Virus record (IMG/VR): IMGVR_UViG_2671180841_000012
Span: 1 to 25,915 of that record
Source of the DNA: a virus
Lineage: Duplodnaviria > Heunggongvirae > Uroviricota > Caudoviricetes
Reading direction: 5' to 3' (one strand)
DNA: 25,915 nt
The notes beneath the pieces are model-generated. The model was not told the origin of the DNA and did not search any database. It worked only from the letters and a program-made list of their open reading frames with translations. Positions 3,238 through 23,196 of the stretch are shown here, piece after piece; the first letter of the stretch is position 1, and each line of letters starts with the position of its first letter. The position numbers and the translations under genes are program-made.

Positions 3238-3509
3238 GTATTCGTATCGAAATTGGCGAACGTTATGTCGTTACCAGTGACAGCTTTCAGTTTATTCTCC
3301 ACGAGAAAAAGAGAGCGGAAAGCGGTAAAAACGCCGGTCAGGAATGGCTGGCGGTGGTTGGTTATTACCCGAAATTAAGCCAGCTCGTTTCCGGCCTGAT
3401 GCATCACGATATTCTGACCGGAAGCGCAAAGTCTTTTGCTGATTTAAACGCGCAGGTTGAGCAACTCAGCAAGCGTTGTTCTGAGGCTTTTGGCTCATAT
3501 GGCCGTTAA
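3234..3509 (+). CDS. Hypothetical early protein (P2 orf83 position)
   Basis: 91-aa ORF; stop overlaps the start of A. Confidence 0.55.
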   Translation: MSIRIEIGERYVVTSDSFQFILHEKKRAESGKNAGQEWLAVVGYYPKLSQLVSGLMHHDILTGSAKSFADLNAQVEQLSKRCSEAFGSYGR

Positions 3510-5775
3510 AGCCTCCGGGCGTTTTGTCCCTCCGTCAGCATTTGCCGCAGGCACCGGTAAGGCGTTTACCGGTGCTTATGCATGGAACGCGCCACGCGAG
3601 GCTGTCGGGCGCGAAAGACCTCTTACACGTGACGAGATGCGTCAGGTGCAAGGTGTTTTATCCACGATTAACCGCCTGCCTTACTTTTTGCGCTCGCTGT
3701 TTACTTCACGCTATGACTACATCCGGCGCAATAAAAGCCCGGTGCACGGGTTTTATTTCCTCACATCCACTTTTCAGCGTCGTTTATGGCCGCGCATTGA
3801 GCGTGTGAATCAGCGCCATGAAATGAACACCGACGCGTCGATGCTGTTTCTGGCAGAGCGTGACCACTATGCGCGCCTGCCGGGAATGAATGACAAGGAG
3901 CTGAAAAAGTTTGCCGCCCGTATCTCATCGCAGCTTTTCATGATGTATGAGGAACTCAGCGATGCCTGGGTGGATGCGCATGGCGAGAAAGAATCGCTGT
4001 TTACGGATGAGGCGCAGGCTCACCTCTATGGTCATGTTGCTGGCGCTGCACGTGCTTTCAATATTTCCCCTCTCTACTGGAAAAAATACCGTAAAGGACA
4101 GATGACCACGAGGCAGGCATATTCTGCCATTGCCCGTCTGTTTAACGATGAGTGGTGGACTCATCAGCTTAAAGGCCAGCGTATGCGCTGGCATGAAGCG
4201 TTACTGATAGCTGTCGGGGAGGTCAATAAAGACCGTTCTCCTTATGCCAGTAAACATGCCATTCGTGATGTGCGTGCGCGCCGCCAGGCAAATCTGGAAT
4301 TTCTTAAATCGTGTGACCTTGAAAACAGGGAAACCGGCGAGCGCATCGACCTTATCAGTAAGGTGATGGGCAGTATTTCTAATCCTGAAATTCGCCGGAT
4401 GGAGCTGATGAACACCATTGCCGGTATTGAGCGTTACGCCGCCGCAGAGGGTGATGTGGGGATGTTTATCACGCTGACCGCGCCGTCAAAGTATCACCCG
4501 GCACGTCAGGTCGGAAAAGGCGAAAGTAAAACCGTCCAGCTTAATCACGGCTGGAATGATGAGGCATTTAATCCAAAGGATGCGCAGCGATATCTCTGCC
4601 GTATCTGGAGCCTGATGCGCACGGCATTCAAGGATAATGACTTACAGGTCTACGGTTTGCGTGTCGTCGAGCCACACCACGACGGAACGCCGCACTGGCA
4701 TATGATGCTTTTTTGTAATCCACGCCAGCGTAACCAGATTATTGAAATCATGCGTCGCTATGCGCTCAAAGAGGATGGCGACGAAAGAGGAGCCGCGCGA
4801 AACCGTTTTCAGGCAAAACACCTTAACCGGGGCGGTGCTGCGGGATATATCGCGAAATACATCTCAAAAAACATCGACGGCTATGCACTGGATGGTCAGC
4901 TCGATAATGATACCGGTAGGCCGCTGAAAGATACTGCGGCGGCTGTTACCGCATGGGCATCAACGTGGCGCATCCCGCAATTTAAAACGGTTGGCCTGCC
5001 GACAATGGGAGCTTACCGTGAGCTACGTAAATTGCCTCGCGGCGTCAGCATTGCTGATGAATTTGACGAACGCGTGGAGGCTGCACGCGCCGCCGCAGAC
5101 AGTGGCGATTTTGCGCTGTATATCAGCGCGCAGGGCGGGGCAAATGTCCCGCGCGATTGTCAGACTGTCAGGGTCGCCCGTAGCCCGTCGGATGACGTTA
5201 ACGAATACGAGGAAGAAGTCGAGAGAGTGGTCGGCATTTACGCGCCGCATCTCGGCGCGCGTCATATTCATATCACCAGAACGACGGACTGGCGCATTGT
5301 GCCGAAAGTTCCGGTCGTTGAGCCTTTGACTTTAAAAAGCGGCATCGCCGCGCCTCGGAGTCCTGTCAATAACTGTGGAAAGCTCACCGGTGGTGATACT
5401 TCGTTACCGGCTCCCACACCTTCTGAGCACGCCGCAGCAGTGCTTAATCTGGTAGATGACGGTGTTATCGAATGGAGTGACCCGGAGGTCGTGATGGCGC
5501 TCAGGGGCGCATTAAAACACGGACTGAGAACACCAAATCGTCAGCAAAGAAACGGAAGCCCGTTAAAACCACATGAAATTGCACCATCGGCCAGACTGAC
5601 CCGGTCGGAAAGAATGCAAATTACCCGTATCCGCGTTGACCTCGCTCAGAACGGTATCAGGCCGCAACGATGGGAGCTTGAGGCGCTGGCGCGTGGCGCG
5701 ACCGTAAATTATGACGGGAAAAAATTCACGTATCCGGTTGCTGATGAGTGGCCGGGGTTCTCGTTACCCATTTGA
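3499..5775 (+). CDS. A: Replication initiator A (rolling-circle, P2 gpA-like)
   Basis: Long ORF 3457..5775; start placed at the Met of MAVKASGRFVPP (3499), which overlaps the upstream stop; contains the HHDGTPHWHMM and YIAKYISKN motifs of rolling-circle initiators. In P2 the origin lies inside A; not located here. Confidence 0.88.
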   Translation: MAVKASGRFVPPSAFAAGTGKAFTGAYAWNAPREAVGRERPLTRDEMRQVQGVLSTINRLPYFLRSLFTSRYDYIRRNKSPVHGFYFLTSTFQRRLWPRIERVNQRHEMNTDASMLFLAERDHYARLPGMNDKELKKFAARISSQLFMMYEELSDAWVDAHGEKESLFTDEAQAHLYGHVAGAARAFNISPLYWKKYRKGQMTTRQAYSAIARLFNDEWWTHQLKGQRMRWHEALLIAVGEVNKDRSPYASKHAIRDVRARRQANLEFLKSCDLENRETGERIDLISKVMGSISNPEIRRMELMNTIAGIERYAAAEGDVGMFITLTAPSKYHPARQVGKGESKTVQLNHGWNDEAFNPKDAQRYLCRIWSLMRTAFKDNDLQVYGLRVVEPHHDGTPHWHMMLFCNPRQRNQIIEIMRRYALKEDGDERGAARNRFQAKHLNRGGAAGYIAKYISKNIDGYALDGQLDNDTGRPLKDTAAAVTAWASTWRIPQFKTVGLPTMGAYRELRKLPRGVSIADEFDERVEAARAAADSGDFALYISAQGGANVPRDCQTVRVARSPSDDVNEYEEEVERVVGIYAPHLGARHIHITRTTDWRIVPKVPVVEPLTLKSGIAAPRSPVNNCGKLTGGDTSLPAPTPSEHAAAVLNLVDDGVIEWSDPEVVMALRGALKHGLRTPNRQQRNGSPLKPHEIAPSARLTRSERMQITRIRVDLAQNGIRPQRWELEALARGATVNYDGKKFTYPVADEWPGFSLPI

Positions 5776-5991
5776 GTAAAAACACAACGTGATTTGATAT
5801 GGCATTGAATGGCTTATGCGGAGCAGTTATGGGGCAGCAGAAGGTCAATAGCATGCTGAATTAGAAGGCTAAATGCTATTGAGTGACTAGCATGTCGGTA
5901 AGGACAGCCGTTTGATCCGGGTCATAAAAGGCCATCCATTTAGTCTAATAAAATCATTGCGGGTAACCTTATGTCGACGCATAATTCGTCT

Positions 5992-6066
5992 TGAGCGAAG
6001 TCTTGTCAGTCTTTCATCGTATTGATGATGGGCGCAAAAAAACCACCCTGGCAGGTGGTTTTTTTG
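5992..6066 (+). ncRNA. Hypothetical small RNA (candidate antisense regulator of the 37-aa peptide mRNA)
   Basis: Promoter-like TTGCGG-N17-CATAAT (5957-5985) places a start near 5991-5993; a transcript would end at the bidirectional terminator (6036-6066). Its first 15 nt are perfectly complementary to the 5' leader of the convergent peptide gene. Purely predicted. Confidence 0.3.
6036..6066. terminator. Bidirectional intrinsic terminator
   Basis: AAAAAAACCACC-CTGGCA-GGTGGTTTTTTT: GC-containing stem flanked by an A-run on one side and a T-run on the other, so it reads as hairpin plus U-tract on both strands. Sits between the end of the A transcript and the 3' end of the minus-strand peptide gene. 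Confidence 0.7.
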
Positions 6067-6077
6067 TTTGAAGCATA

Positions 6078-6191
6078 TTAAAGCATAATGCTGACATTGA
6101 TATTACTGACGTTTACTGACAAACCACTCGGACTACCGTTTGGATAGCCAAAGAGGGCCAGAACGAGAATGCAGTAATAGCATTTCTTCAT
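6078..6191 (-). CDS. 37-aa hydrophobic small protein (candidate type I toxin-like membrane peptide)
   Basis: ATG at 6189-6191 (minus) preceded by AGGAGG four nt upstream; product MKKCYYCILVLALFGYPNGSPSGLSVNVSNINVSIML has two Lys then a ~13-residue hydrophobic stretch and a polar tail; stop TAA at 6078-6080 is followed by the terminator. The track ORF 6078..6344 is a longer in-frame extension lacking a comparable RBS. Confidence 0.55.
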   Translation of the reverse strand: MKKCYYCILVLALFGYPNGSPSGLSVNVSNINVSIML

Positions 6192-6669
6192 ATTGCCTCC
6201 TGTAAGTAGAGGGCAACTTCCACCGGTATATGCGCTTCTTAGGTGGAATGACTTTTGAGCGAAGTCTTGCCCTGAAATAATGCTCTGTTTAAACGCAAAG
6301 TGATTTGGCATATCACCGAACAGAGAGCCGGAAAAACACAACATATAGTATGTCGTTGTTTCTAGGCATACATTCTATGTTGTGTAACAAGGGCTTTGCA
6401 TTAAACATGTTTGAGATTTTATTGATGTAGCTCAAAGTAAAAAACAGAGACTACGGATGATAAGGTCTTGAAAGCAATGTAAATTTTTTAAAGTTGCCAA
6501 TTGCTTAAAAATGTACAGTTGCGGTATGGCGTACTTAAAAAGCTATGCATGCAACAAGTGAATGTTTTTGCATGCGTTGGGGATGTCCGTTCAGGCGGCG
6601 TGCGGTCAGGACTGGTGCGGATCCATAGTATCTATGCAACTGCATTAAAACCGCCCCGTGAAGCGGGCG

Positions 6670-6688
6670 GGCGAGGCGGGGAAAGCAC
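6670..6688. other. cos site (P2-type 19-nt cohesive end)
   Basis: Sequence GGCGAGGCGGGGAAAGCAC matches the P2 cohesive-end sequence as I recall it, in the expected place just upstream of Q. Its presence internal to the element fits a prophage permuted from att. Confidence 0.6.
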
Positions 6689-6857
6689 TGCGCGCTGGCG
6701 GTGGTGCTGATTTTATTTTTTCAGCGTCTGAGCGCGTCGTGATGGCGTTTAGATTGTTCGCCGGGGCGTTGGTGTGTCTGCGGGCTGTTTTGTGCGGTGG
6801 TGAGCGTGTGAGGGCGTGATGGCGGGGTGTAAAAAAGCCGCCCGCAGGCGGCGATGT

Positions 6858-7892
6858 TCAGCCGTTGTCAGTGTCCAGTGAGTAGTTTTTAAAGCGGATG
6901 ACCTCCTGACCGAGCCAGCCGTTTATTTCCCGAATCCTGTCCTGTAACGGGATTAGCTCATTGCGGACAAAGACCTTTGCCACTTTCTCAATATCGCCCA
7001 GTGACCCGACGTTCTCCGGCTTGCCACCCATCAACTGAAAGGGGATGCGGTGTGCGTCCAGCAGGTCAGCGGCGCTGGCTTTTTTGATATTAAAAAAATC
7101 GTCCTTCGTCGCCACTTCACTGAGCGGGATAATTTTAATGCCGTCGGCTTTCCCCTGCGGGGCATAGAGAAACAGGTTTTTAAAGTTGTTGCGGCCTTTC
7201 GACTTCACCATGTTTTCGCGAAGCATTTCGATATCGTTGCGATCCTGCACGGCATCGGTAACGTACATGATGTATCCGGCATGTGCGCCGTTTTCGTAAT
7301 ACTTTCGGCGGAACAGCGTGGCCGACTCATTCAGCCAGGCAGAATTAAGGGCGCTGAGATATTCCGGCAGGCCGTACAACTCCTGATTAATATCCGGCTC
7401 CAGCAGGTGAAACACGGAGCCGGGTGTGAAGGCTGTCGGCTCGTTGAAGGACGGCACCCACCAGTAAACATCCTCCTCCACGCCACGGCGGGTATATTTT
7501 GCCGGTGAGGTTTCCAGTCTGATGACCTTACCGGTGGTGCTGTAACGCTTTTCCAGAAACGCATTACCGAACACCAGAAAATCCAGCACAAAACGGCTGA
7601 AATCCTGCTGGGAAAGCCACGGGTGCGGGATAAACGTTGAAGCCAGAATATTACGTTTGACGTAAATCGGTGAGCTGTGATGCACGGCAGCACGCAGGCT
7701 TTTTGCCAGACCGGTAAAGCTGACCGGCGGCTCATACCATCTGCCGTTACTGATGCACTCGACGTAATCCAGAATGTCACGGCGGTCGAGTACCGGCACC
7801 GGCTCGCCAAAGGTGAATGCTTCCATTTTCGGGGCGCTGGCGGTGATTGTTTTTGCCGCAGGTCGCGGTGTTTTCCCTTTTTTCTTGCTCAT
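6858..7892 (-). CDS. Q: Portal protein (P2 gpQ-like)
   Basis: 344-aa minus-strand ORF, the same length as P2 Q; start overlaps the stop of P; first gene next to cos. Confidence 0.88.
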   Translation of the reverse strand: MSKKKGKTPRPAAKTITASAPKMEAFTFGEPVPVLDRRDILDYVECISNGRWYEPPVSFTGLAKSLRAAVHHSSPIYVKRNILASTFIPHPWLSQQDFSRFVLDFLVFGNAFLEKRYSTTGKVIRLETSPAKYTRRGVEEDVYWWVPSFNEPTAFTPGSVFHLLEPDINQELYGLPEYLSALNSAWLNESATLFRRKYYENGAHAGYIMYVTDAVQDRNDIEMLRENMVKSKGRNNFKNLFLYAPQGKADGIKIIPLSEVATKDDFFNIKKASAADLLDAHRIPFQLMGGKPENVGSLGDIEKVAKVFVRNELIPLQDRIREINGWLGQEVIRFKNYSLDTDNG

Positions 7893-10750: not shown

Positions 10751-11824
10751 ATGCGCCAGGAAACCCGCTTTAAATTTAATGCCTACCTGTCCCGTGTTGC
10801 CGAACTGAACGGCATCGACGCCGGTGATGTGTCGAAAAAATTCACCGTTGAAACGTCGGTCACCCAGACCCTGATGAACACCATGCAGGAGTCCTCTGAC
10901 TTTCTGACCCGCATCAACATTGTGCCGGTCAGCGAAATGAAAGGGGAAAAAATTGGTATTGGTGTCACCGGCTCCATCGCCAGCACCACCGACACCGCCG
11001 GTGGCACCGAGCGTCAGCCGAAGGACTTCTCGAAGCTGGCGTCAAACAAGTACGAATGCGACCAGATTAACTTCGATTTTTATATCCGCTACAAAACGCT
11101 GGACCTGTGGGCGCGTTATCAGGATTTCCAGCTCCGTGTCCGTAACGCCATTATCAAACGCCAGTCCCTTGATTTAATCATGGCCGGTTTTAACGGCGTG
11201 AGGCGTGCCGAAACCTCTGACCGCAGCAGTAACCCGATGCTGCAGGATGTGGCGGTCGGCTGGCTGCAGAAATACCGCAATGAAGCCCCGGCGCGCGTGA
11301 TGAGCAAGGTCACTGACGAGGAAGGGCACACCACCTCTGAGGTTATCCGCGTGGGTAAGGGCGGTGATTATGCCAGCCTTGACGCACTGGTGATGGATGC
11401 GACCAACAACCTGATTGAACCTTGGTATCAGGAAGACCCTGACCTTGTGGTGATTGTGGGGCGTCAGCTACTGGCGGACAAGTATTTCCCCATCGTCAAT
11501 AAGGAGCAGGACAACAGCGAAATGCTGGCCGCTGACGTCATCATCAGCCAGAAACGCATCGGTAACCTGCCGGCGGTACGCGTCCCGTACTTCCCGGCGG
11601 ATGCGATGCTCATCACGAAGCTGGAAAACCTGTCCATCTACTACATGGATGACAGCCATCGCCGCGTGATTGAGGAAAACCCGAAACTCGACCGCGTGGA
11701 GAACTACGAGTCAATGAACATTGATTACGTGGTGGAAGACTACGCCGCCGGTTGTCTGGTGGAAAAAATCAAGGTCGGTGATTTCTCCACACCGGCTAAG
11801 GCGACCGCAGAGCCGGGAGCGTAA
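10751..11824 (+). CDS. N: Major capsid protein (P2 gpN-like)
   Basis: 357-aa ORF preceded by AGGA; O-N-M order. Confidence 0.88.
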   Translation: MRQETRFKFNAYLSRVAELNGIDAGDVSKKFTVETSVTQTLMNTMQESSDFLTRINIVPVSEMKGEKIGIGVTGSIASTTDTAGGTERQPKDFSKLASNKYECDQINFDFYIRYKTLDLWARYQDFQLRVRNAIIKRQSLDLIMAGFNGVRRAETSDRSSNPMLQDVAVGWLQKYRNEAPARVMSKVTDEEGHTTSEVIRVGKGGDYASLDALVMDATNNLIEPWYQEDPDLVVIVGRQLLADKYFPIVNKEQDNSEMLAADVIISQKRIGNLPAVRVPYFPADAMLITKLENLSIYYMDDSHRRVIEENPKLDRVENYESMNIDYVVEDYAAGCLVEKIKVGDFSTPAKATAEPGA

Positions 11825-15593: not shown

Positions 15594-16038
15594 GTTTAAG
15601 CGTTTTGAAGACCGGCTGACCGGACTGATTGAATCGCTGTCACCGTCAGGGCGTCGGCGACTGAGTGCCGAACTGGCGAAACGTCTGCGTCAGAGTCAGC
15701 AGCGTCGGGTGATGGCACAGAAAGCCCCGGACGGCACACCCTACGCGCCACGTCAGCAGCAGAGCGCCAGAAAAAAGACCGGTCGCGTTAAGCGAAAAAT
15801 GTTTGCGAAACTTATCACCAGTCGTTTTTTGCATATCCGCGCCAGCCCTGAACAGGCATCAATGGAGTTTTACGGCGGAAAGTCACCGAAAATCGCCAGT
15901 GTGCATCAGTTTGGTCTGTCGGAAGAAAACCGGAAGGACGGTAAGAAAATTGATTATCCGGCGCGTCCTCTGCTCGGCTTTACCGGTGAGGATGTGCAGA
16001 TGATTGAAGAGATTATCCTGGCTCACCTCGACCGTTAG
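15586..16038 (+). CDS. S: Tail completion protein S
   Basis: 150-aa ORF overlapping the R stop (ATGAATGA). Confidence 0.8.
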   Translation: MNEFKRFEDRLTGLIESLSPSGRRRLSAELAKRLRQSQQRRVMAQKAPDGTPYAPRQQQSARKKTGRVKRKMFAKLITSRFLHIRASPEQASMEFYGGKSPKIASVHQFGLSEENRKDGKKIDYPARPLLGFTGEDVQMIEEIILAHLDR

Positions 16039-16104
16039 TTGTGCCATTCCAGACACCTCATCGTCACATTGCCGCCGGTATGACCCGGCGGCATCCTTCC
16101 CGTT

Positions 16105-16740
16105 ATGAACACTCTCGCAAATATTCAGGAACTCGCGCGCGCACTGCGCAACATGATCCGCACCGGCATTATCGTCGAAACCGACCTTAACGCCGGTCGC
16201 TGCCGTGTGCAGACCGGCGGCATGTGCACCGACTGGCTTCAGTGGCTGACCCATCGCGCCGGACGTTCGCGCACATGGTGGGCACCTTCCGTGGGGGAAC
16301 AGGTGCTGATTCTGGCCGTGGGCGGTGAACTCGACACGGCGTTCGTTCTGCCGGGGATTTATTCCGGCGATAACCCCGCGCCGTCTGCGTCGGCGGATGC
16401 CCTGCATATCCGTTTCCCTGACGGGGCGGTGATTGAATATGAACCCGAAACCAGTGCACTCACGGTAAGCGGAATTAAAACGGCCAGCGTGACGGCTTCT
16501 GATTCTGTTACTGCCACGGTACCGGTGGTCACGGTGAAATCGTCAACCCGTGTCACTCTGGACACACCGGAAGTGGTCTGCACTAACAAACTGACTACCG
16601 GCACGCTGGAAGTGCAGAAGGGCGGGACGATGCGCGGCAACATTGAACACACCGGCGGTGAACTCTCATCAAACGGTAAGGTACTGCATACCCACAAACA
16701 CCCCGGCGACAGCGGCGGCACAACCGGGAGTCCTTTATGA
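16105..16740 (+). CDS. V: Baseplate spike/hub protein V
   Basis: 211-aa ORF; its C-terminal motif HTHKHPGDSGGTTGSP resembles spike-tip proteins. Confidence 0.85.
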   Translation: MNTLANIQELARALRNMIRTGIIVETDLNAGRCRVQTGGMCTDWLQWLTHRAGRSRTWWAPSVGEQVLILAVGGELDTAFVLPGIYSGDNPAPSASADALHIRFPDGAVIEYEPETSALTVSGIKTASVTASDSVTATVPVVTVKSSTRVTLDTPEVVCTNKLTTGTLEVQKGGTMRGNIEHTGGELSSNGKVLHTHKHPGDSGGTTGSPL

Positions 16741-17084
16741 CAGCGCGTTATCTCGGAATGAATCGCAGTGATGGCCTGACGGTCACTGACCTTGAGCATA
16801 TCAGCCAGAGTATCGGCGATATCCTGCGCACACCGGTCGGCTCACGGGTGATGCGTCGTGATTACGGCTCGTTGCTGGCGTCAATGATTGACCAGCCGCA
16901 GACTCCGGCGCTTGAGTTGCAGATTAAGGTCGCCTGTTACATGGCAGTGCTGAAATGGGAACCCCGCGTCACCCTGTCATCCGTCACCACGGCGCGCAGT
17001 TTTGACGGGCGAATGACGGTCACGTTAACCGGTCAGCACAACGACACCGGCCAGCCACTTTCGTTAACCATCCCTGTGAGTTGA
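16737..17084 (+). CDS. W: Baseplate wedge protein W (gp25-like)
   Basis: 115-aa ORF overlapping the V stop (ATGA). Confidence 0.85.
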   Translation: MTARYLGMNRSDGLTVTDLEHISQSIGDILRTPVGSRVMRRDYGSLLASMIDQPQTPALELQIKVACYMAVLKWEPRVTLSSVTTARSFDGRMTVTLTGQHNDTGQPLSLTIPVS

Positions 17085-17088
17085 AACC

Positions 17089-17997
17089 ATGCCGATTATC
17101 GACCTGAACCAGCTACCCGCACCGGATGTGGTCGAGGAGCTGGACTTTGAAACCATTCTTGCCGAACGCAAGGCGACACTGATTTCCCTTTACCCGGAAG
17201 ACCAGCAGGAGGCGGTCGCCCGTACCCTGACGCTGGAATCTGAGCCTCTCGTCAAACTGCTGGAGGAAAATGCTTATCGTGAGCTTATCTGGCGTCAGCG
17301 TGTGAATGAGGCCGCACGGGCGGTGATGCTGGCCTGTGCCGCCGGTAATGACCTTGATGTGATTGGTGCCAATTACAACACCACGCGCCTGACTATCACC
17401 CCGGCAGATGATTCGACCATCCCGCCGACACCGGCAGTGATGGAGTCTGACACCGATTATCGTCTGCGTATTCAGCAGGCGTTTGAAGGTTTAAGCGTCG
17501 CCGGGTCGGTGGGTGCCTATCAGTATCATGGCCGCAGTGCCGACGGGCGTGTCGCGGATATTTCTGTCACCAGTCCGTCTCCGGCCTGCGTCACTATCTC
17601 TGTGCTGTCACGTGAAAATAACGGTGTCGCATCCGAAGACCTGCTGGCCGTGGTGCGTAACGCCCTGAATGGCGAGGACGTCAGGCCGGTGGCCGACCGC
17701 GTGACCGTGCAGTCTGCCGCCATCGTTGAATACCAGATAAACGCCACGCTTTACCTTTACCCTGGTCCCGAAAGCGAACCCATCCGCGCTGCCGCCGTGA
17801 AAAAACTGGAAGCGTATATCACGGCACAGCACCGGCTGGGGCGCGATATCCGTCTGTCTGCCATTTATGCCGCTTTGCATGTGGAAGGTGTGCAGCGTGT
17901 CGAACTGGCTGCACCGCTGGCTGACATCGTGCTCAACAGTACGCAGGCGTCTTTCTGTACCGAATACAGCGTCGTGACCGGAGGCTCGGATGAGTGA
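17089..17997 (+). CDS. J: Baseplate protein J
   Basis: 302-aa ORF in V-W-J-I order. Confidence 0.85.
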   Translation: MPIIDLNQLPAPDVVEELDFETILAERKATLISLYPEDQQEAVARTLTLESEPLVKLLEENAYRELIWRQRVNEAARAVMLACAAGNDLDVIGANYNTTRLTITPADDSTIPPTPAVMESDTDYRLRIQQAFEGLSVAGSVGAYQYHGRSADGRVADISVTSPSPACVTISVLSRENNGVASEDLLAVVRNALNGEDVRPVADRVTVQSAAIVEYQINATLYLYPGPESEPIRAAAVKKLEAYITAQHRLGRDIRLSAIYAALHVEGVQRVELAAPLADIVLNSTQASFCTEYSVVTGGSDE

Positions 17998-18601
17998 TTC
18001 GCGACTGCTGCCGACCGGCTCATCACTGCTTGAAGTTGCCGCCGCAAAAGCCTGTGCGGAAATTGAAAAAACGCCGGTCAGTATTCGTGAGCTGTGGAAC
18101 CCGGACACCTGCCCGGCAAATCTGCTGCCGTGGCTGGCGTGGTCATTTTCGGTTGACCGCTGGGATGATAAATGGCCGGAAGCGACAAAACGCGCTGTTA
18201 TCCGCGATGCGTATTTCATTCACTGCCATAAGGGCACTATAGGCGCAATCCGGCGTGTGGTGGAGCCGCTCGGCTATCTGATTGAGGTGAGGGAGTGGTG
18301 GCAGCTCAACGAGGAGCCGGGGACGTTCCGTATCGTTGTTGGCGTGCTTGAGCAGGGTATTACCGAAGAAATGTATCAGGAGCTGGAGCGCCTAGTTGCT
18401 GATGCAAAACCGGCAAGCCGCCATCTGACGGGACTGGCTATCAGTTTAAGTACAACCGGCAACATTTTTGCCGGTGCGGGATGCTATCACGGTGACGCCC
18501 TGACGGTTTATCCCTACACCCCGGAGGCCATTATTGTCGGAGGGGATTATTTCCCGGCCTCGGCCATTCATTTAATTGATAACCTGAGAGTAAACGCATG
18601 A
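17990..18601 (+). CDS. I: Baseplate protein I
   Basis: 203-aa ORF overlapping the J stop; P2 gpI position. Confidence 0.8.
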
Positions 18602-19758
18602 CAGTGAAATACTACGCCATTCTGACTAATCAGGGCGCAGCACGGCTGGCTAACGCGACGATGCTCGGCAGTAAGCTGAATCTGACGCAAATGGCCGTTG
18701 GTGATGCGAATGGTGTCTTGCCGACACCAGACCCGGCACAGACAAAACTGATTAACCAGAAACGCATCGCGCCGCTGAATCTTCTGAGTGTTGACCCGAA
18801 CAACCAGAGCCAGATTATTGCGGAGCAAATCATCCCTGAGAACGAGGGCGGATTCTGGATCCGTGAGATTGGGCTTTATGATGATGAAGGCGTACTCATT
18901 GCGGTGGCGAACTGCCCGGAAACGTACAAACCGCAGTTGCAGGAAGGCAGTGGTCGTACCCAGACTATCCGCATGATTCTGGTTGTCACGAATACCGAAG
19001 CTATCACGCTGAAAATCGACCCGTCGGTGGTACTGGCGACCCGTAAATACGTGGATGATGAAGTCCTGGAATTAAGGCTGTATGTGGATGACCAGATGAG
19101 AAACCACATTGCCGCACAGGATCCTCATACCCAGTATGCGCAGAAACATAATCCGACATTTACCGGAGAACCAAAAGCGCCGACGCCTGCCGCAGGAAAT
19201 AACACCACGCGGATTGCGACCACTGCGTTTGTTCAGGCCGCTATTACCGCTCTGATTAACGGTGCGCCAGCCACGCTGGACACACTGAAAGAAATTGCCG
19301 CAGCCATTAACAATGACCCGAAATTCAGTACCACCATTAACAATGCGCTGTCAGGTAAGCAGCCACTGGATGAGACGCTGACTCATTTGAGTGGAAAGGA
19401 TGTAGCTGGTCTTCTCGCATACCTTGGTTTGGGAGAAGCGGCAAAACGGAATGTGGGAACAGGGGAAAATCAGATACCTGATATGTCATCATATGCATCA
19501 GGTTCAGGCTGGCGAAAAATGCCAGATGGTTCAATTGAACAGTGGGGACGAATTCGTTTTCCTGGTGAACACGGGCCTGTATCCGCCAATGTTTCATTCC
19601 CGATTCCATTTACACAGACACCGGGCATTGTAATTGTGTGCGATGGTGGTTTCGGGGGCGGGAATATGTGGGGGGCGACCAACTGGAGCACTACCGGCTT
19701 CATAGCTCACTGCAATTATGGTCTTGAAGGTGGTGCGTTTTTCGCTAAGGGCTGGTAA
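18598..19758 (+). CDS. H: Tail fibre protein H (constant N-terminal part fused to invertible C-terminal variable part)
   Basis: 386-aa ORF; the N-terminal ~275 residues resemble the P2-type fibre shaft (MAVGDANG...[20 protein letters not shown]); the C-terminal ~110 residues lie beyond the crossover site at 19412-19437. Confidence 0.85.
19412..19437. repeat. hix/gix-like recombination site inside H (proximal end of invertible segment)
   Basis: TTCTCGCATACC-TT-GGTTTGGGAGAA: two 12-bp half-sites in inverted orientation around a 2-bp core (10 of 12 symmetric); 19421-19437 is the exact reverse complement of 21237-21253. Confidence 0.7.
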
Positions 19759-20201
19759 TGATGAAATATCTGTACGTAAACAACCTGGCATATCCTTACG
19801 AACTTCAGTCTCTTTATGTTGAAAAAGGTGAATGGCCTGAAGAAAAAGGTGTTGATATAGACGAAGTAATTTTCAGGGAATATTTCTATGACACACCACC
19901 AGAAGGAAAATACAGATGTGTTGGAGAAGATGGACTGCCTGCATGGGCAGATATTCCTCCACCAACACGTGAAGAACAAATTGCATCAGCCGAAACTAAA
20001 AAGCAGCAATTGATTAATCAGGCCAACGATTATATGAACAGTAGACAATGGGTTGGTAAAGCGGCTATTGGTCGTCTGAAAGGTGAGGAACTGGCGCAAT
20101 ATAATTTGTGGCTGGATTATCTGGACGCACTGGAGCTGGTCGATACTTCCAGTGCACCAGATATTGAATGGCCTACTCCTCCGGCAGTTCAGGCCAGATG
20201 A
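19758..20201 (+). CDS. G: Tail fibre assembly chaperone G
   Basis: 147-aa ORF overlapping the H stop (TAATG); C-terminal motif LDYLDA...DTSSAPDIEWP is shared with the minus-strand paralog. Confidence 0.8.
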   Translation: MMKYLYVNNLAYPYELQSLYVEKGEWPEEKGVDIDEVIFREYFYDTPPEGKYRCVGEDGLPAWADIPPPTREEQIASAETKKQQLINQANDYMNSRQWVGKAAIGRLKGEELAQYNLWLDYLDALELVDTSSAPDIEWPTPPAVQAR

Positions 20202-20784
20202 CATCCGGCGCGGTGCTGGTATCTGTTGCCGTCACCGCGTCAATGTAATCCAGCACCGTGTTAAGTCGGCTGGTTTCTGCCTGCGTCAGATTCCGTCCGG
20301 CCCGTAATTTCAGTTGAATCAGACTGATGGAAGCCATTGCAGTATCAATCAGCGACTGGCGTTGTGCTTCTGCTGCATCTACTGCGGCGCTATGCTGTGC
20401 ATCGGTATCCGTCACCCATTTCTCACCATCCCATTTATCGTATGGTGTTAACGGGGCGATAGTGGTTGTATTATCAGGGTAATCACCCGGAGCTGTGATT
20501 TCTTTTGATTCTCCTGTTTCGGTGCTAAAGACGATTTCACCGCGATGGTCTGGCACATATTCCCATGAGTTAAAATCTGCAGAACGGCAGATTGCATAAC
20601 CAGCCTTATGTGTAACTGGTGCATCTAAACAAGAACATGCCGGGATACCGACGCCAACCGTAAGATATTCAGTTGATGTGGAAATATATTCCCGCGTTTC
20701 TCCGTTGTAGTTGTAAACGGTAATGAAGCCAGCCTCTGTGGCAAATCCGTTTTCATCCAAAGTGATTTTTTTTGTGGTCATCAT
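20173..20784 (-). CDS. Alternative tail fibre assembly chaperone (G')
   Basis: 203-aa minus-strand ORF convergent with G, 3' ends overlapping by 29 bp; C-terminal LDYIDA...DTSTAPDVIWP marks it as a paralog of G. Confidence 0.75.
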   Translation of the reverse strand: MMTTKKITLDENGFATEAGFITVYNYNGETREYISTSTEYLTVGVGIPACSCLDAPVTHKAGYAICRSADFNSWEYVPDHRGEIVFSTETGESKEITAPGDYPDNTTTIAPLTPYDKWDGEKWVTDTDAQHSAAVDAAEAQRQSLIDTAMASISLIQLKLRAGRNLTQAETSRLNTVLDYIDAVTATDTSTAPDVIWPELPEE

Positions 20785-21257
20785 GCTGCCCTTACAATGT
20801 AGTTAAATGCAATGTTACGTGGCCTTGTTTCTGCTGATGTTCTTGCACTCCTGGATAAATCAAGTGTCACACCATAGTAACTAAATGCATTACCAGTTGA
20901 TGGAGCGGCATATTTAACCCCAGAACTAGAACCAACATTAAAAACTCCAGATGCTGAGGAAGCTGACCCCATAGTGTTATCAATCAGAGAACCCGTAACA
21001 TTTTGCATAGCGTCAAGTTGTTCGCTTAATAAAGCGCGTCCACTATCAACATCACGCCCGTCATCCCAGCCACGAATAAATTCACCTCGTAAATCAGGCA
21101 ATTTATTTGTCGGATAAGCCTTTGCCAGTTCCGGGTATTCTTCAGCAGAAAAAAACGCACCGTTGCATTTCAGCCAGCCTGTTGGCGGAGTGGTGGAAGG
21201 CCACGGAACAGGCACGCCAACGGGTAATGCCGAACCTTCTCCCAAACCAAGGTATAA
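20781..21257 (-). CDS. Silent alternative tail-fibre C-terminal cassette (Hv')
   Basis: Minus-strand reading frame ending at 20781 that enters at the distal crossover site with LYLGLGEGSALPVG..., parallel to H's [10 protein letters not shown]. The frame is the same relative to the core in both sites, so inversion would fuse H's constant part in frame. The track ORF runs on to 21434 but has no credible start there. Confidence 0.65.
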   Translation of the reverse strand, partial: LYLGLGEGSALPVGVPVPWPSTTPPTGWLKCNGAFFSAEEYPELAKAYPTNKLPDLRGEFIRGWDDGRDVDSGRALLSEQLDAMQNVTGSLIDNTMGSASSASGVFNVGSSSGVKYAAPSTGNAFSYYGVTLDLSRSARTSAETRPRNIAFNYIVRAA

Positions 21258-21262
21258 CAACA
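21237..21262. repeat. hix/gix-like recombination site (distal end of invertible segment)
   Basis: TTCTCCCAAACC-AA-GGTATAACAACA: left half-site and core are the exact inverted copy of the site in H; the right half-site is degenerate (about 6 of 12). Confidence 0.65.
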
Positions 21263-21415
21263 AATGACCAGAATACGGAATTGCAGCGTAACGCGCTGGA
21301 GTGCGCAGGATGTGAGCTGATTTTTGATATTGGCCTGTCCACGCTCTATAAAAAATTCCCCTCATCAGCGACAAAGAATAAATTGTGTCATCCCTTAGCC
21401 AACCGGGACAAATAG
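21251..21415 (+). pseudogene. Remnant of a Gin/Hin/Cin/Pin-family serine DNA invertase
   Basis: Plus-strand frame next to the distal site reads TNDQNTELQRNALECAGCELIF then jumps to DIGLSTLYKKFPSS...; these correspond to the N-terminal residues and the C-terminal DNA-binding end of Gin/Hin as I recall them. No start codon, no catalytic Ser (RVS absent), and ~140 internal codons missing. Confidence 0.7.
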
Positions 21416-21474
21416 CCTGACATCTCCGGCACAACTGAAAATATCACTCACCCATTAACCACGGAGTTAAACGG

Positions 21475-22665
21475 ATGAGTGACTATCATCACGGCGTGCA
21501 GGTGCTGGAGATTAACGACGGCACCCGTGTCATTTCCACCGTATCCACTGCCATTGTTGGCATGGTCTGCACGGCCAGCGATGCGGATGCGGAAACCTTC
21601 CCCCTCAATAAACCGGTGCTGATTACCAATGTGCAGAGCGCAATTGCAAAGGCCGGTAAAAAAGGCACGCTGGCGGCATCGTTGCAGGCTATCGCCGACC
21701 AGTCAAAACCGGTCACCGTTGTTGTGCGCGTGGAGGACGGCACCGGCGACGACGAAGAAACGAAACTTGCGCAGACCGTTTCCAATATCATCGGCACCAC
21801 TGACGAAAACGGTCAGTACACCGGACTGAAAGCCCTGCTGGCGGCAGAGTCGGTAACCGGTGTTAAACCGCGTATTCTTGGTGTGCCGGGACTGGATACC
21901 AAAGAGGTGGCTGTAGCACTAGCATCCGTCTGTCAGAAGCTGCGCGCTTTCGGGTATATCAGCGCATGGGGCTGTAAGACCATTTCCGAGGTGAAAGCCT
22001 ACCGCCAGAATTTCAGCCAGCGTGAGCTGATGGTCATCTGGCCGGATTTCCTCGCATGGGATACGGTCACCAGTACCACCGCCACCGCGTATGCCACCGC
22101 TCGTGCGCTGGGGCTGCGCGCTAAAATCGACCAGGAGCAGGGCTGGCATAAAACGCTGTCCAACGTCGGGGTGAACGGTGTTACCGGCATCAGCGCATCT
22201 GTATTCTGGGATTTGCAGGAGTCCGGCACCGATGCTGACCTGCTTAACGAGTCAGGCGTCACTACGCTGATTCGCCGCGACGGTTTCCGCTTCTGGGGTA
22301 ACCGTACCTGCTCTGATGACCCACTGTTTCTCTTTGAAAACTACACCCGTACCGCGCAGGTGCTGGCCGACACGATAGCTGAGGCGCACATGTGGGCGGT
22401 GGACAAGCCCATCACCGCAACGCTGATTCGCGACATCGTTGACGGCATCAATGCCAAATTCCGTGAGCTGAAAACAAACGGCTATATCGTGGATGGCTCA
22501 TGCTGGTTCAGCGAAGAATCCAACGATGCGGAAACCCTCAAGGCCGGAAAACTGTATATCGACTACGACTATACACCGGTGCCTCCTCTCGAAAACCTGA
22601 CCCTGCGCCAGCGTATTACCGATAAATACCTGGCGAATCTGGTCACCTCGGTTAACAGCAATTAA
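21475..22665 (+). CDS. FI: Tail sheath protein FI
   Basis: 396-aa ORF preceded by GGAG. Confidence 0.88.
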   Translation: MSDYHHGVQVLEINDGTRVISTVSTAIVGMVCTASDADAETFPLNKPVLITNVQSAIAKAGKKGTLAASLQAIADQSKPVTVVVRVEDGTGDDEETKLAQTVSNIIGTTDENGQYTGLKALLAAESVTGVKPRILGVPGLDTKEVAVALASVCQKLRAFGYISAWGCKTISEVKAYRQNFSQRELMVIWPDFLAWDTVTSTTATAYATARALGLRAKIDQEQGWHKTLSNVGVNGVTGISASVFWDLQESGTDADLLNESGVTTLIRRDGFRFWGNRTCSDDPLFLFENYTRTAQVLADTIAEAHMWAVDKPITATLIRDIVDGINAKFRELKTNGYIVDGSCWFSEESNDAETLKAGKLYIDYDYTPVPPLENLTLRQRITDKYLANLVTSVNSN

Positions 22666-22677
22666 GGAGCCTGACCG

Positions 22678-23196
22678 ATGGCAATGCCGCGCAAACTCAA
22701 GTTAATGAACGTCTTTCTGAACGGCTACAGCTATCAGGGCGTCGCGAAGTCCGTCACGCTACCAAAACTGACCCGTAAGCTCGAAAACTATCGCGGTGCG
22801 GGGATGAACGGCAGCGCACCGGTAGACCTCGGCCTTGATGACGATGCGCTGTCAATGGAGTGGTCGCTCGGTGGCTTCCCGGATTCGGTTATCTGGGAGC
22901 TTTACGCCGCAACCGGTGTGGATGCCGTACCGATTCGTTTTGCAGGCTCTTACCAGCGCGACGATACCGGCGAAACGGTGGCCGTCGAGGTGGTCATGCG
23001 TGGACGTCAGAAAGAAATCGACACCGGCGAGGGTAAACAGGGAGAAGACACCGAGTCGAAAATCTCCGTGGTCTGCACCTATTTCCTGCTGACGATGGAC
23101 GGTAAGGAGCTGGTCGAAATTGACACCATCAACATGATTGAGAAGGTGAACGGCGTCGACCGGCTGGAGCAACACCGCCGCAATATCGGCCTGTGA
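22678..23196 (+). CDS. FII: Tail tube protein FII
   Basis: 172-aa ORF preceded by AGGAG, directly after FI. Confidence 0.88.
   Translation: MAMPRKLKLMNVFLNGYSYQGVAKSVTLPKLTRKLENYRGAGMNGSAPVDLGLDDDALSMEWSLGGFPDSVIWELYAATGVDAVPIRFAGSYQRDDTGETVAVEVVMRGRQKEIDTGEGKQGEDTESKISVVCTYFLLTMDGKELVEIDTINMIEKVNGVDRLEQHRRNIGL

Follow-up and report, generated by a model that had tools for sequence, protein, structure and literature searches.

Introduction

Among the classical serine-invertase switches of phage tail fibres, the one nearest to the locus described here is the P segment of e14 in Escherichia coli K-12 with its invertase PinE, in which a constant fibre part is followed by a site, a tip with its chaperone, a convergent chaperone with its tip, a second site and the invertase gene. 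The G segment of Mu, inverted by Gin, and the C segment of P1, inverted by Cin, work by the same mechanism and with the same gene logic (Sc-Sv-U / U'-Sv'), and Mu has likewise 26-bp sites, a 2-bp core and an invertase gene just outside the right site. The recombinational enhancer of Hin/Gin-type systems is cis-acting and consists of two Fis sites in the 5' part of the invertase coding sequence, about 100 bp from the nearest site (PMC2724282, PMC3798978). Sequencing and PCR have shown fibre loci of P2-like prophages to invert in culture (PMC4272514), and the Z/fun hotspot of P2 often holds an invertase, with neighbouring genes inverted as well (bioRxiv 10.1101/2024.10.15.618418). Prophage invertases can also act in trans on other prophages (PMC12529663, PMC8987985). 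Precedents for one prophage's invertase flipping the segment of another are PinQ, which acts on e14 (PMC12529663), and Fin of Fels-2, which acts on hix according to the statement in PMC8987985 that cites Kutsukake 2006.

The locus analysed here lies in a stretch of 25,915 nucleotides, referred to as the window (positions 1 to 25,915 of IMG/VR virus record IMGVR_UViG_2671180841_000012). An invertible host-range cassette was recognisable in it from the raw sequence, and was proposed as such in a preliminary description made without database searches.

Organization of the tail-fibre locus

The tail module of the window follows the P2-like (Peduoviridae) order V-W-J-I-H-G ... FI-FII-E-T. That the cassette is embedded in a P2-type tail fibre locus, as initially proposed, agrees with the PF12571 domain at the N-terminus of H, with gpI (PF09684) and with the sheath domains of FI. 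The closest cultured phage is Peduovirus pro483, and in the annotation of E. coli MNCRE44 the identical prophage sits at cpxP-fieF and extends from integrase to ogr. The features of the locus, in window coordinates, are the following.

18598..19758, + strand: tail fibre gene H, 386 aa; constant part from 18598 to the core at 19424-19425, variable tip at 19426-19758.
19412-19437: left crossover site (pixL-like), complete, 26 bp, TTCTCGCATACC TT GGTTTGGGAGAA, core TT at 19424-19425.
19758..20201, + strand: G, tail fibre assembly chaperone, 147 aa; PF02413 (Caudo_TAP, 3.2e-33), phrog_188; paired with the gp53-like tip that would be expressed in the window orientation.
20173..20784, - strand: G', alternative chaperone, TfaE-like, 203 aa; PF02413 (1.4e-32); convergent with G.
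20781..21248, - strand: Sv', alternative tip, predicted to be silent, with a Collar domain (PF07484, 6.7e-15) and without its own start codon or promoter.
21237-21262: right crossover site as written in the window, TTCTCCCAAACC AA GGTATAACAACA, inverted relative to the left site.
21237-21250: the portion of the right site that is real, made up of the inner half TTCTCCCAAACC and the core AA (21249-21250); matches the inner half of e14 pixR exactly.
21251-21257: assembly artefact; GGTATAA in the window stands for GGTAT followed by two N, which were rendered as AA.
21258-21415, + strand: what is left of a Pin-like invertase gene of 594 nt, with nt 26-95 joined in frame to nt 507-594.
21475..22665, + strand: tail sheath gene FI (PF04984, PF17482, PF22671), right of the cassette, where it marks the P2-type backbone.

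The H protein combines PF12571 (residues 1-150, 2e-62) with a gp53-like C-terminal domain (PF21882, residues 307-374) and matches PHROG tail fibre families, and its homology to P2-type H genes ends at position 19438. By Pfam the folds of the two tips are unrelated (Gp53-like_C versus Collar). The DNA of G' has 86% nucleotide identity to the e14 tfaE region and 95% to tfa/stf of HK97. A search of NCBIfam with the fibre and chaperone proteins and a search of Rfam with the window returned no match. The inner segment has a GC content of 46.8% against 54.1% in the remaining window, as expected from the AT-rich appearance noted at first sight. The layout is that of a host-range cassette of the Mu G, P1 C or e14 P type: the constant 5' part of the fibre gene lies outside, and two tip and chaperone pairs converge within the segment, in the same frame at the core. 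The opposition of H tip and G to an alternative tip and G', described beforehand, is borne out by domains and strands. Likewise, the claim that inversion would exchange the tip in frame holds, as the offset of the right core within the tip ORF on the minus strand equals that of the left core within H, and inversion in silico yields an uninterrupted protein of 431 aa (H') that joins the H constant part to Sv'.

Crossover sites and the right junction

The preliminary description had placed a hix/gix-like site at about codon 275 of H; a site of the hix/pix type is indeed found there, with its core at position 2 of codon 276, and this left site is identical across all relatives examined. As written, the window contains a perfect 20-nt inverted repeat (19419-19438 / 21236-21255, arms 1797 nt apart), and the 17-mer ACCTTGGTTTGGGAGAA occurs in it exactly twice, once per strand, against 0.07 expected from shuffled sequences. 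The cores TT and AA are identical in inverted orientation, just as first described, and the inverted partner 1.8 kb downstream is present. However, the perfect match of 17 bp attributed to this partner does not stand: because positions 21251-21257 are artefactual, the true perfect repeat is 15 nt long (18/20 positions matching) and not 17-20, the outer right arm being the product of a scaffold gap.

The origin of the artefact can be read in the public source contig (JYLV01000085.1 of GCA_000952385.1, here L015), which is otherwise identical to the window over 7,161 nt and reads GGTATNN, with NN at window positions 21256-21257. In sister assemblies this point reads CGTTTAA, followed by 82 further bases, so that they are 85 nt longer than the window overall; the bases absent from the window comprise the outer half-site, the upstream region of the invertase gene, its ATG and codons 1-8. 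The full junction is seen in L016, L017, L003 and L020, all of which contain the complete real right site, TTCTCCCAAACC AA CGTTTAAGAAAA; L016 and L017 carry the same prophage in the same orientation as the window, with the complete right site and the 85 additional nucleotides. The right edge of the segment in the window is a scaffold gap, not biology. With the right outer half taken from the sister assemblies, the locus has two inverted 26-bp sites of imperfect dyad symmetry that share one 2-bp core, as is characteristic of serine invertases.

It could be argued that the right junction is instead a real deletion of 82-85 nt, accompanied by two substitutions, with loss of the outer half-site, of the start of the invertase gene and of some of the enhancer, so that the switch would be locked. 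The window does run continuously through GGTATAACAACAAATG, and the junction is absent from all other collections searched, as a private mutation would be: it does not occur in complete E. coli genomes, nothing was found in GTDB representatives, and matches in IMG/VR and JGI metagenomes were chance and unrelated. Such a deletion is nevertheless very improbable, since the source contig has NN precisely where the window has AA, the five bases before NN match the element's other junction and no neighbouring sequence, and three other assemblies of the same prophage carry the complete sequence. Four origins of GGTATAA had been considered: aberrant cleavage by the invertase, recombination at a quasi-site within the invertase gene, a template switch from one repeat arm to the other, and gene conversion. 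Neither the window nor MNCRE44 holds a template for this junction, and all four were dropped in view of the GGTATNN of the source; the idea of a locked switch with the enhancer abutting the right site, which rested on the artefact, was withdrawn. Apparent special features such as a longer perfect repeat or a missing half-site can thus stem from a two-base scaffold gap written as AA.

Both orientations of the segment

Evidence for inversion comes from E. coli MNCRE44, which matches the window over 19,438 nt with 1 mismatch and over 4,658 nt with none, while the inner segment is exactly inverted. The isomer predicted at the outset, in which tip and chaperone are swapped, is thus found base for base in MNCRE44, where the 431-aa H' protein is annotated exactly. 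L020 also has the MNCRE44 orientation, and the window, L016 and L017 share the other. Both orientations therefore occur with their break points at the cores, in a comparison made between isolates. In L022 and L024 the assemblies break exactly at the cores. A supposed second, inverted H gene with the 'right site' GGTATGCGAGAA in HKUOPY1 was discarded as a circularisation artefact, as this record begins within the invertible region, which is present in it twice.

These data bear on the possibility that the inverted repeat is a mere by-product of convergent, related fibre genes that share the coding motif YLGLGE, with no inversion taking place. Although the repeat does sit in the coding sequence of a motif common to many fibre genes, its sequence and geometry match the crossover sites of e14 and Mu, an invertase gene adjoins it in relatives, homology to unrelated phage backbones stops precisely at the sites, and identical prophages differ by an inversion that ends exactly at the cores. 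The chance that the repeat reflects the coding motif only is therefore negligible.

The invertase remnant

No intact serine recombinase gene adjoins the segment in the window, and the remnant at 21258-21415 has no Pfam match. Alignment to the relatives EA2 and pro483 reveals a 411-nt in-frame deletion between 12-nt direct repeats GCTGATTTTTGA, and the full remnant locus in the sister assemblies encodes 60 aa. The deletion is common to MNCRE44, LD27-1, SRY149, NCTC10973 and others, and RefSeq annotates a recombinase pseudogene in these four. EA2 and pro483 have an intact 197-aa invertase directly after the right site (PF00239 and PF02796), which is 87% identical to PinE and 77% identical to Gin and matches the Gin structure 3uj3 with E = 1e-94; a DNA invertase is also included in the pro483 annotation. 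The remnant itself had been missed in the preliminary description. This had suggested supplying an invertase in trans, and the enzyme must indeed come in trans, for a reason not seen at that time, namely the dead gene at 21258-21415.

The deletion has left the 5' end of the gene in place. Of the invertase gene, the window keeps nucleotides 26-95 and the real locus 1-95, a part in which conservation with pinE and gin is high; the stretch at 21258-21318 is the probable homologue of the Fis-dependent recombinational enhancer found in hin and gin, and in MNCRE44 this putative enhancer starts about 90 bp from the right core, where it may still be functional. The element's own invertase is dead, and both sites as well as the enhancer-homologous 5' stretch are intact in the real genome.

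Because the MNCRE44 prophage has the opposite orientation and differs by at most one SNP, the segment appears to have flipped at least once after the invertase was deleted, presumably through an invertase acting in trans. That the same repeat-mediated deletion arose twice independently and so accounts for the two orientations, in place of a later flip, is unlikely with at most 1 SNP in 24 kb. A more serious alternative is that the locus descends from an invertible segment but, for want of a compatible invertase, has ceased to invert at a meaningful rate in this lineage, so that the differences in orientation are rare historical events. The reduction of its own invertase to a 60-codon remnant is in line with this, and so is the 29-kb Logan contig L016, which passes both sites without a break; moreover, 24 public contigs carry the exact H' but only 1-2 carry H, a skew that suits rare switching. 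Several observations make this alternative doubtful, however. At least one flip separates genomes that differ by no more than one SNP in 24 kb, and GGTAT before the NN of the source contig is the reverse complement of the left junction of the flipped isomer, which hints at mixed reads. In addition, co-residence of related cassettes and invertases is common in E. coli, whose genomes have a median of 2 matching places and a maximum of 11, and the action of invertases in trans is documented (PMC12529663).

Proposed mechanism

Taken together, the locus is best read as a Pin/Gin-type site-specific inversion switch for the receptor-binding end of the H fibre, orphaned such that only a related invertase made elsewhere in the cell could flip it, and flipped at least once since the deletion (probability about 0.8). 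In the proposed mechanism, a serine invertase, assisted by host Fis bound to the enhancer, would cut both 26-bp sites at the shared 2-bp core and rotate the ends, after which the 1.8-kb segment between the cores would be re-ligated in the opposite orientation. The 275 constant N-terminal codons of H would thereby be joined in frame to either tip, that is, to the gp53-like tip followed by chaperone G in the window state, or to the Collar-domain tip followed by G' in the alternative state, and the promoterless tip not in use would remain silent. The two tips are assumed to give different host ranges, by analogy with Mu, P1 and carotovoricin.

It is conceivable, if somewhat less than an even bet, that Pin-family invertases of co-resident prophages keep the orphan switch flipping. 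In this reading the lineage, having lost almost all of the invertase, has retained besides both crossover sites just the stretch of about 95 nt at the 5' end of the gene that would hold the Fis enhancer, and the enhancer-only remnant may have been kept by selection and not by the chance placement of the 12-nt repeats. If true, the tail-fibre phase variation of one prophage would be controlled by another.

Comparison with known systems

The arrangement is already known, common and documented in E. coli P2-like prophages, and the present locus is a decayed copy that adds little new. Its modest interest lies in the occurrence of an invertase-less cassette in either orientation among clinical E. 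coli prophages that are otherwise identical, which fits invertase cross-talk; this could be relevant when the host range of P2-like phages after induction, or of tailocin-like particles, is to be predicted. The invertible loci of other E. coli P2-like elements (EPEC E2348/69, pro483, the Z/fun hotspot) also lie between H/G and FI and have the same sites and the same invertase family, but their invertase is intact, and EPEC has one locus with three repeats and four isomers in place of the two sites seen here. The flipping of e14 by PinQ and of hix by Fin differs in that those targets also have their own invertase, whereas the target here has none.

The initial comparison with the Mu G segment captured the homology to the classical serine-invertase fibre switches, although e14 P/Pin is the nearest of these and Mu G/Gin slightly more distant. 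Mu differs in its cores (TC/GA), in several half-site positions, in the length of the G segment (3 kb), in its intact Gin and in fibre sequences that are unrelated outside the site region. With respect to e14, the backbone is lambdoid there and that of a P2-type contractile-tail prophage here, the expressed tip and G of the window are unlike stfP/tfaP, and the invertase is a 60-codon pseudogene here. In contrast, the sites are nearly the same: the e14 left site is CTCTCGAAAACC TT GGTTTGGGAGAA, with inner half-site and core identical to those of the window, and the true right site differs by 1 nt from that of e14, to which the right site of pro483 is identical. The likeness extends into the segment itself, where G' and Sv' share 86-89% DNA identity with tfaE and stfE of e14.

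The cassette and its crossover sites

The cassette is situated in the tail module of a P2-like prophage, and the P2-type character of the fibre locus recognized in the preliminary description is borne out by the PF12571 domain of the tail fibre protein H and by the genes on either side, gpI before it and FI after it. The features concerned are the following.

Features of the tail fibre locus (window coordinates)
17990-18601: gpI gene, directly before H
18598-19758, plus strand: H, 386 aa, with PF12571 (P2-type fibre domain) in the N-terminal 150 residues
19412-19437: left 26-bp crossover site, TTCTCGCATACC TT GGTTTGGGAGAA
19758-20201, plus strand: G, Caudo_TAP chaperone
20173-20784, minus strand: G', second chaperone, convergent with G
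20781-21248, minus strand: silent fibre tip, promoterless, Collar domain
21237-21262: right 26-bp crossover site as in the window, TTCTCCCAAACC AA GGTATAACAACA, in which 21251-21257 are not genuine
Between silent tip and FI: short non-fibre DNA
21475: start of the FI sheath gene

Two tip and chaperone modules thus converge from opposite strands, as had been described: the expressed H tip, which carries a Gp53-like C-terminal domain, with G on the plus strand, and G' with the Collar tip on the minus strand. The segment between the two crossover dinucleotides (cores) is AT-rich, as also noted before, with 46.8% GC vs 54.1% in the remaining window. The 17-mer ACCTTGGTTTGGGAGAA occurs twice in the window, once per strand (0.07 expected from shuffles), and a repeat search extends it to a perfect 20-nt inverted repeat (19419-19438/21236-21255) with 1797 nt between the arms. 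The 17-bp perfect repeat reported earlier is therefore present in the window, but its genuine length is 15 nt, 21251-21257 being an artefact (see below). The left core falls on the second position of H codon 276, which places the hix/gix-like site where it had been proposed (near codon 275), and in the silent-tip frame the right core is offset identically. In-silico inversion between the cores yields H', an uninterrupted 431-aa fusion of the H constant part ending in the Collar tip, in agreement with the claim of matching cores and a shared frame. Every element of the preliminary description is confirmed, with the caveat of 21251-21257.

Elsewhere in the window, about 1.1 kb (5776-6857) between an A-like replication gene (3457-5775) and the portal gene (6858-7892) holds no convincing ORF and is likewise without annotation in E. 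coli MNCRE44, which carries a near-identical prophage; this position is that of a known P2 cargo hotspot.

The right junction of the window

Compared with its relatives, the window is missing 85 nt directly behind the right core and departs from them at two bases; through these differences a perfect repeat of 15 nt becomes one of 20 nt. A protein look-up located the exact H protein on contig JYLV01000085.1 of GCA_000952385.1, which equals window 15598-22758 except at 21256-21257, where the window has AA and the record NN (...CCCAAACCAAGGTATNNCAACAAATG...). The window's sequence is that of this draft contig, with N replaced by A. A second source of H, Logan assembly SRR3982153, contains this prophage in the orientation of the window, but has a normal right site (TTCTCCCAAACC AA CGTTTAAGAAAA) and 85 extra nt that hold the upstream region of the invertase gene together with its ATG and codons 1-8; GCA_001571685.1 has the same site and 85 nt. 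Because the source record has NN at this point and the same prophage elsewhere has the full site and the 85 nt, the atypical junction on the right is an artefact of the data. The GGTAT preceding NN is the reverse complement of the flipped isomer's left junction (Collar tip, site, H constant part), which may reflect reads of both isomers in that data set. The A at 10853, a C in MNCRE44 and the sole mismatch to that genome across the left 19.4 kb, might be another ambiguous base written as A. The silent-tip frame remains open upstream past the right site, antisense to the invertase remnant, giving a 217-aa mechanical ORF (20781-21434, minus strand) that is probably meaningless, the real genome having a different sequence there.

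A decayed invertase gene

The preliminary description had placed no invertase in the locus; alignment to the relatives' 594-nt gene reveals a remnant at 21258-21415, corresponding to nt 26-95 and 507-594. The internal loss of 411 nt is in frame and removes residues 32-168, i.e., nearly the entire catalytic domain and the larger part of the DNA-binding domain. It is bounded by two 12-nt direct repeats, GCTGATTTTTGA, encoding ELIF and ALIF (window 21316-21327; nt 84-95 and 495-506 of the relatives' gene). In RefSeq, MNCRE44, LD27-1, SRY149 and NCTC10973 have this remnant annotated as a recombinase pseudogene; single-piece matches add a handful of other complete genomes that carry it, against hundreds with the intact gene. 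In these four named strains the deletion stands beside different tip cassettes, so that it either is old and has spread or has arisen repeatedly.

Hin-family invertases depend on a 65-bp enhancer that acts in cis and contains two Fis sites (PMC2724282; PMC3798978). The real locus keeps nt 1-95 of the invertase gene, in which an enhancer-homologous stretch begins about 90 bp from the right core; the 411-nt deletion starts just downstream of this stretch. Given the position and conservation of the retained 5' stretch, the orphan cassette probably retains all cis requirements, including a putative enhancer.

Evidence for inversion

The predicted inverted isomer exists. The in-silico flipped left junction has 100% identity over 601 nt in MNCRE44, in which the prophage lies between cpxP and fieF, and the whole window aligns to this genome with a single mismatch over the left 19,438 nt and none over the right-hand 4,658 nt, the inner segment being exactly inverted. 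A metagenome contig (L020) is also in the flipped state and has the same 60-codon remnant, and among public contigs H' is found on 24 and H on one or two. Since both orientations share an identical deletion in otherwise identical prophages, the simplest history is deletion first and inversion later; inversion after loss of the invertase would in turn require such an enzyme from another source in the same cell. That members of this enzyme family act on one another's sites is established: hin is complemented by Gin and Cin, and the e14 segment is inverted by PinQ of the Qin prophage (PMC8987985; PMC12529663). Related cassettes often occur together in one genome (median 2, up to 11 places). With the invertase a pseudogene and both orientations on record, the cassette is most likely an orphan switch occasionally flipped in trans, the main rival being that it is effectively a frozen fossil.

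Two short contigs break at the crossover point, where an assembly graph would branch: the 1827-nt L022 (Logan SRR2244253_490; start TTGGTTTGGG, end CCCAAACCAA) exactly at both cores, and L024 (GCA_032514725.1), which likewise begins at a core. Such breaks point to the presence, in those read sets, of both orientations or of more than one genomic context.

In E. coli HKUOPY1 (NZ_CP019961.1; loci L004 and L014), where the invertase is intact, the record was circularised inside the invertible region and the segment is present twice, in both orientations, across record start and end, probably an assembly artefact from mixed orientation in the sequenced culture.

Relatives and known systems

Of 5426 complete E. 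coli genomes, 3042 match some part of the query. The layout of this locus is also annotated in Peduovirus pro483 and numerous E. coli genomes, where a gene for a 197-aa protein ('recombinase family protein' or 'DNA invertase') separates the right site from FI; the protein has resolvase and HTH_7 domains and matches Gin crystal structures (E = 1e-94). Similarity to other phages stops exactly at the crossover sites, matches to P2-type H genes extending to 19438 and those to HK97 stf/tfa covering 20121-21253. From core to core (19424-21250), the inner segment recurs at 98.6-99.9% identity in other backbones (L018, L019 and L021), one of them a Mu-like prophage (GP46, Baseplate_J, Mu Gp48) and another with a tape-measure/GpU neighbour and a full-length invertase. 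As the segment recurs in unrelated backbones and homology ends at both sites, it behaves as a module that phage families exchange at these sites.

Mu, P1, e14 and p15B provide textbook examples of invertible tail-fibre segments served by Pin/Gin-type invertases. In P2-like prophages, two loci of EPEC E2348/69 inverted in culture (PMC4272514), and a survey of P2-like phage hotspots found that a DNA invertase is often present at this locus with adjacent genes inverted (bioRxiv 10.1101/2024.10.15.618418). A public complete genome already contains the window's own prophage, with annotation. The finding is real and was rightly interpreted, but is already known; a small twist is the decayed invertase together with the evidence for trans-driven flipping.

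The nearest known system is the e14 P segment with Pin. The e14 sites are CTCTCGAAAACC TT GGTTTGGGAGAA and TTCTCCCAAACC AA CGTTTATGAAAA, tfaE and stfE are 86-89% identical in DNA to the window's G' and silent tip, and the relatives' invertase is 87% identical to PinE vs 77% to Gin of Mu, whose gix sites are alike in geometry but have TC/GA cores. The earlier comparison with the Mu G segment is therefore supported as to the invertible host-range type, whereas Mu is one step more distant and the evidence supports a cassette of the Pin/e14 type in which the invertase gene has become a pseudogene.
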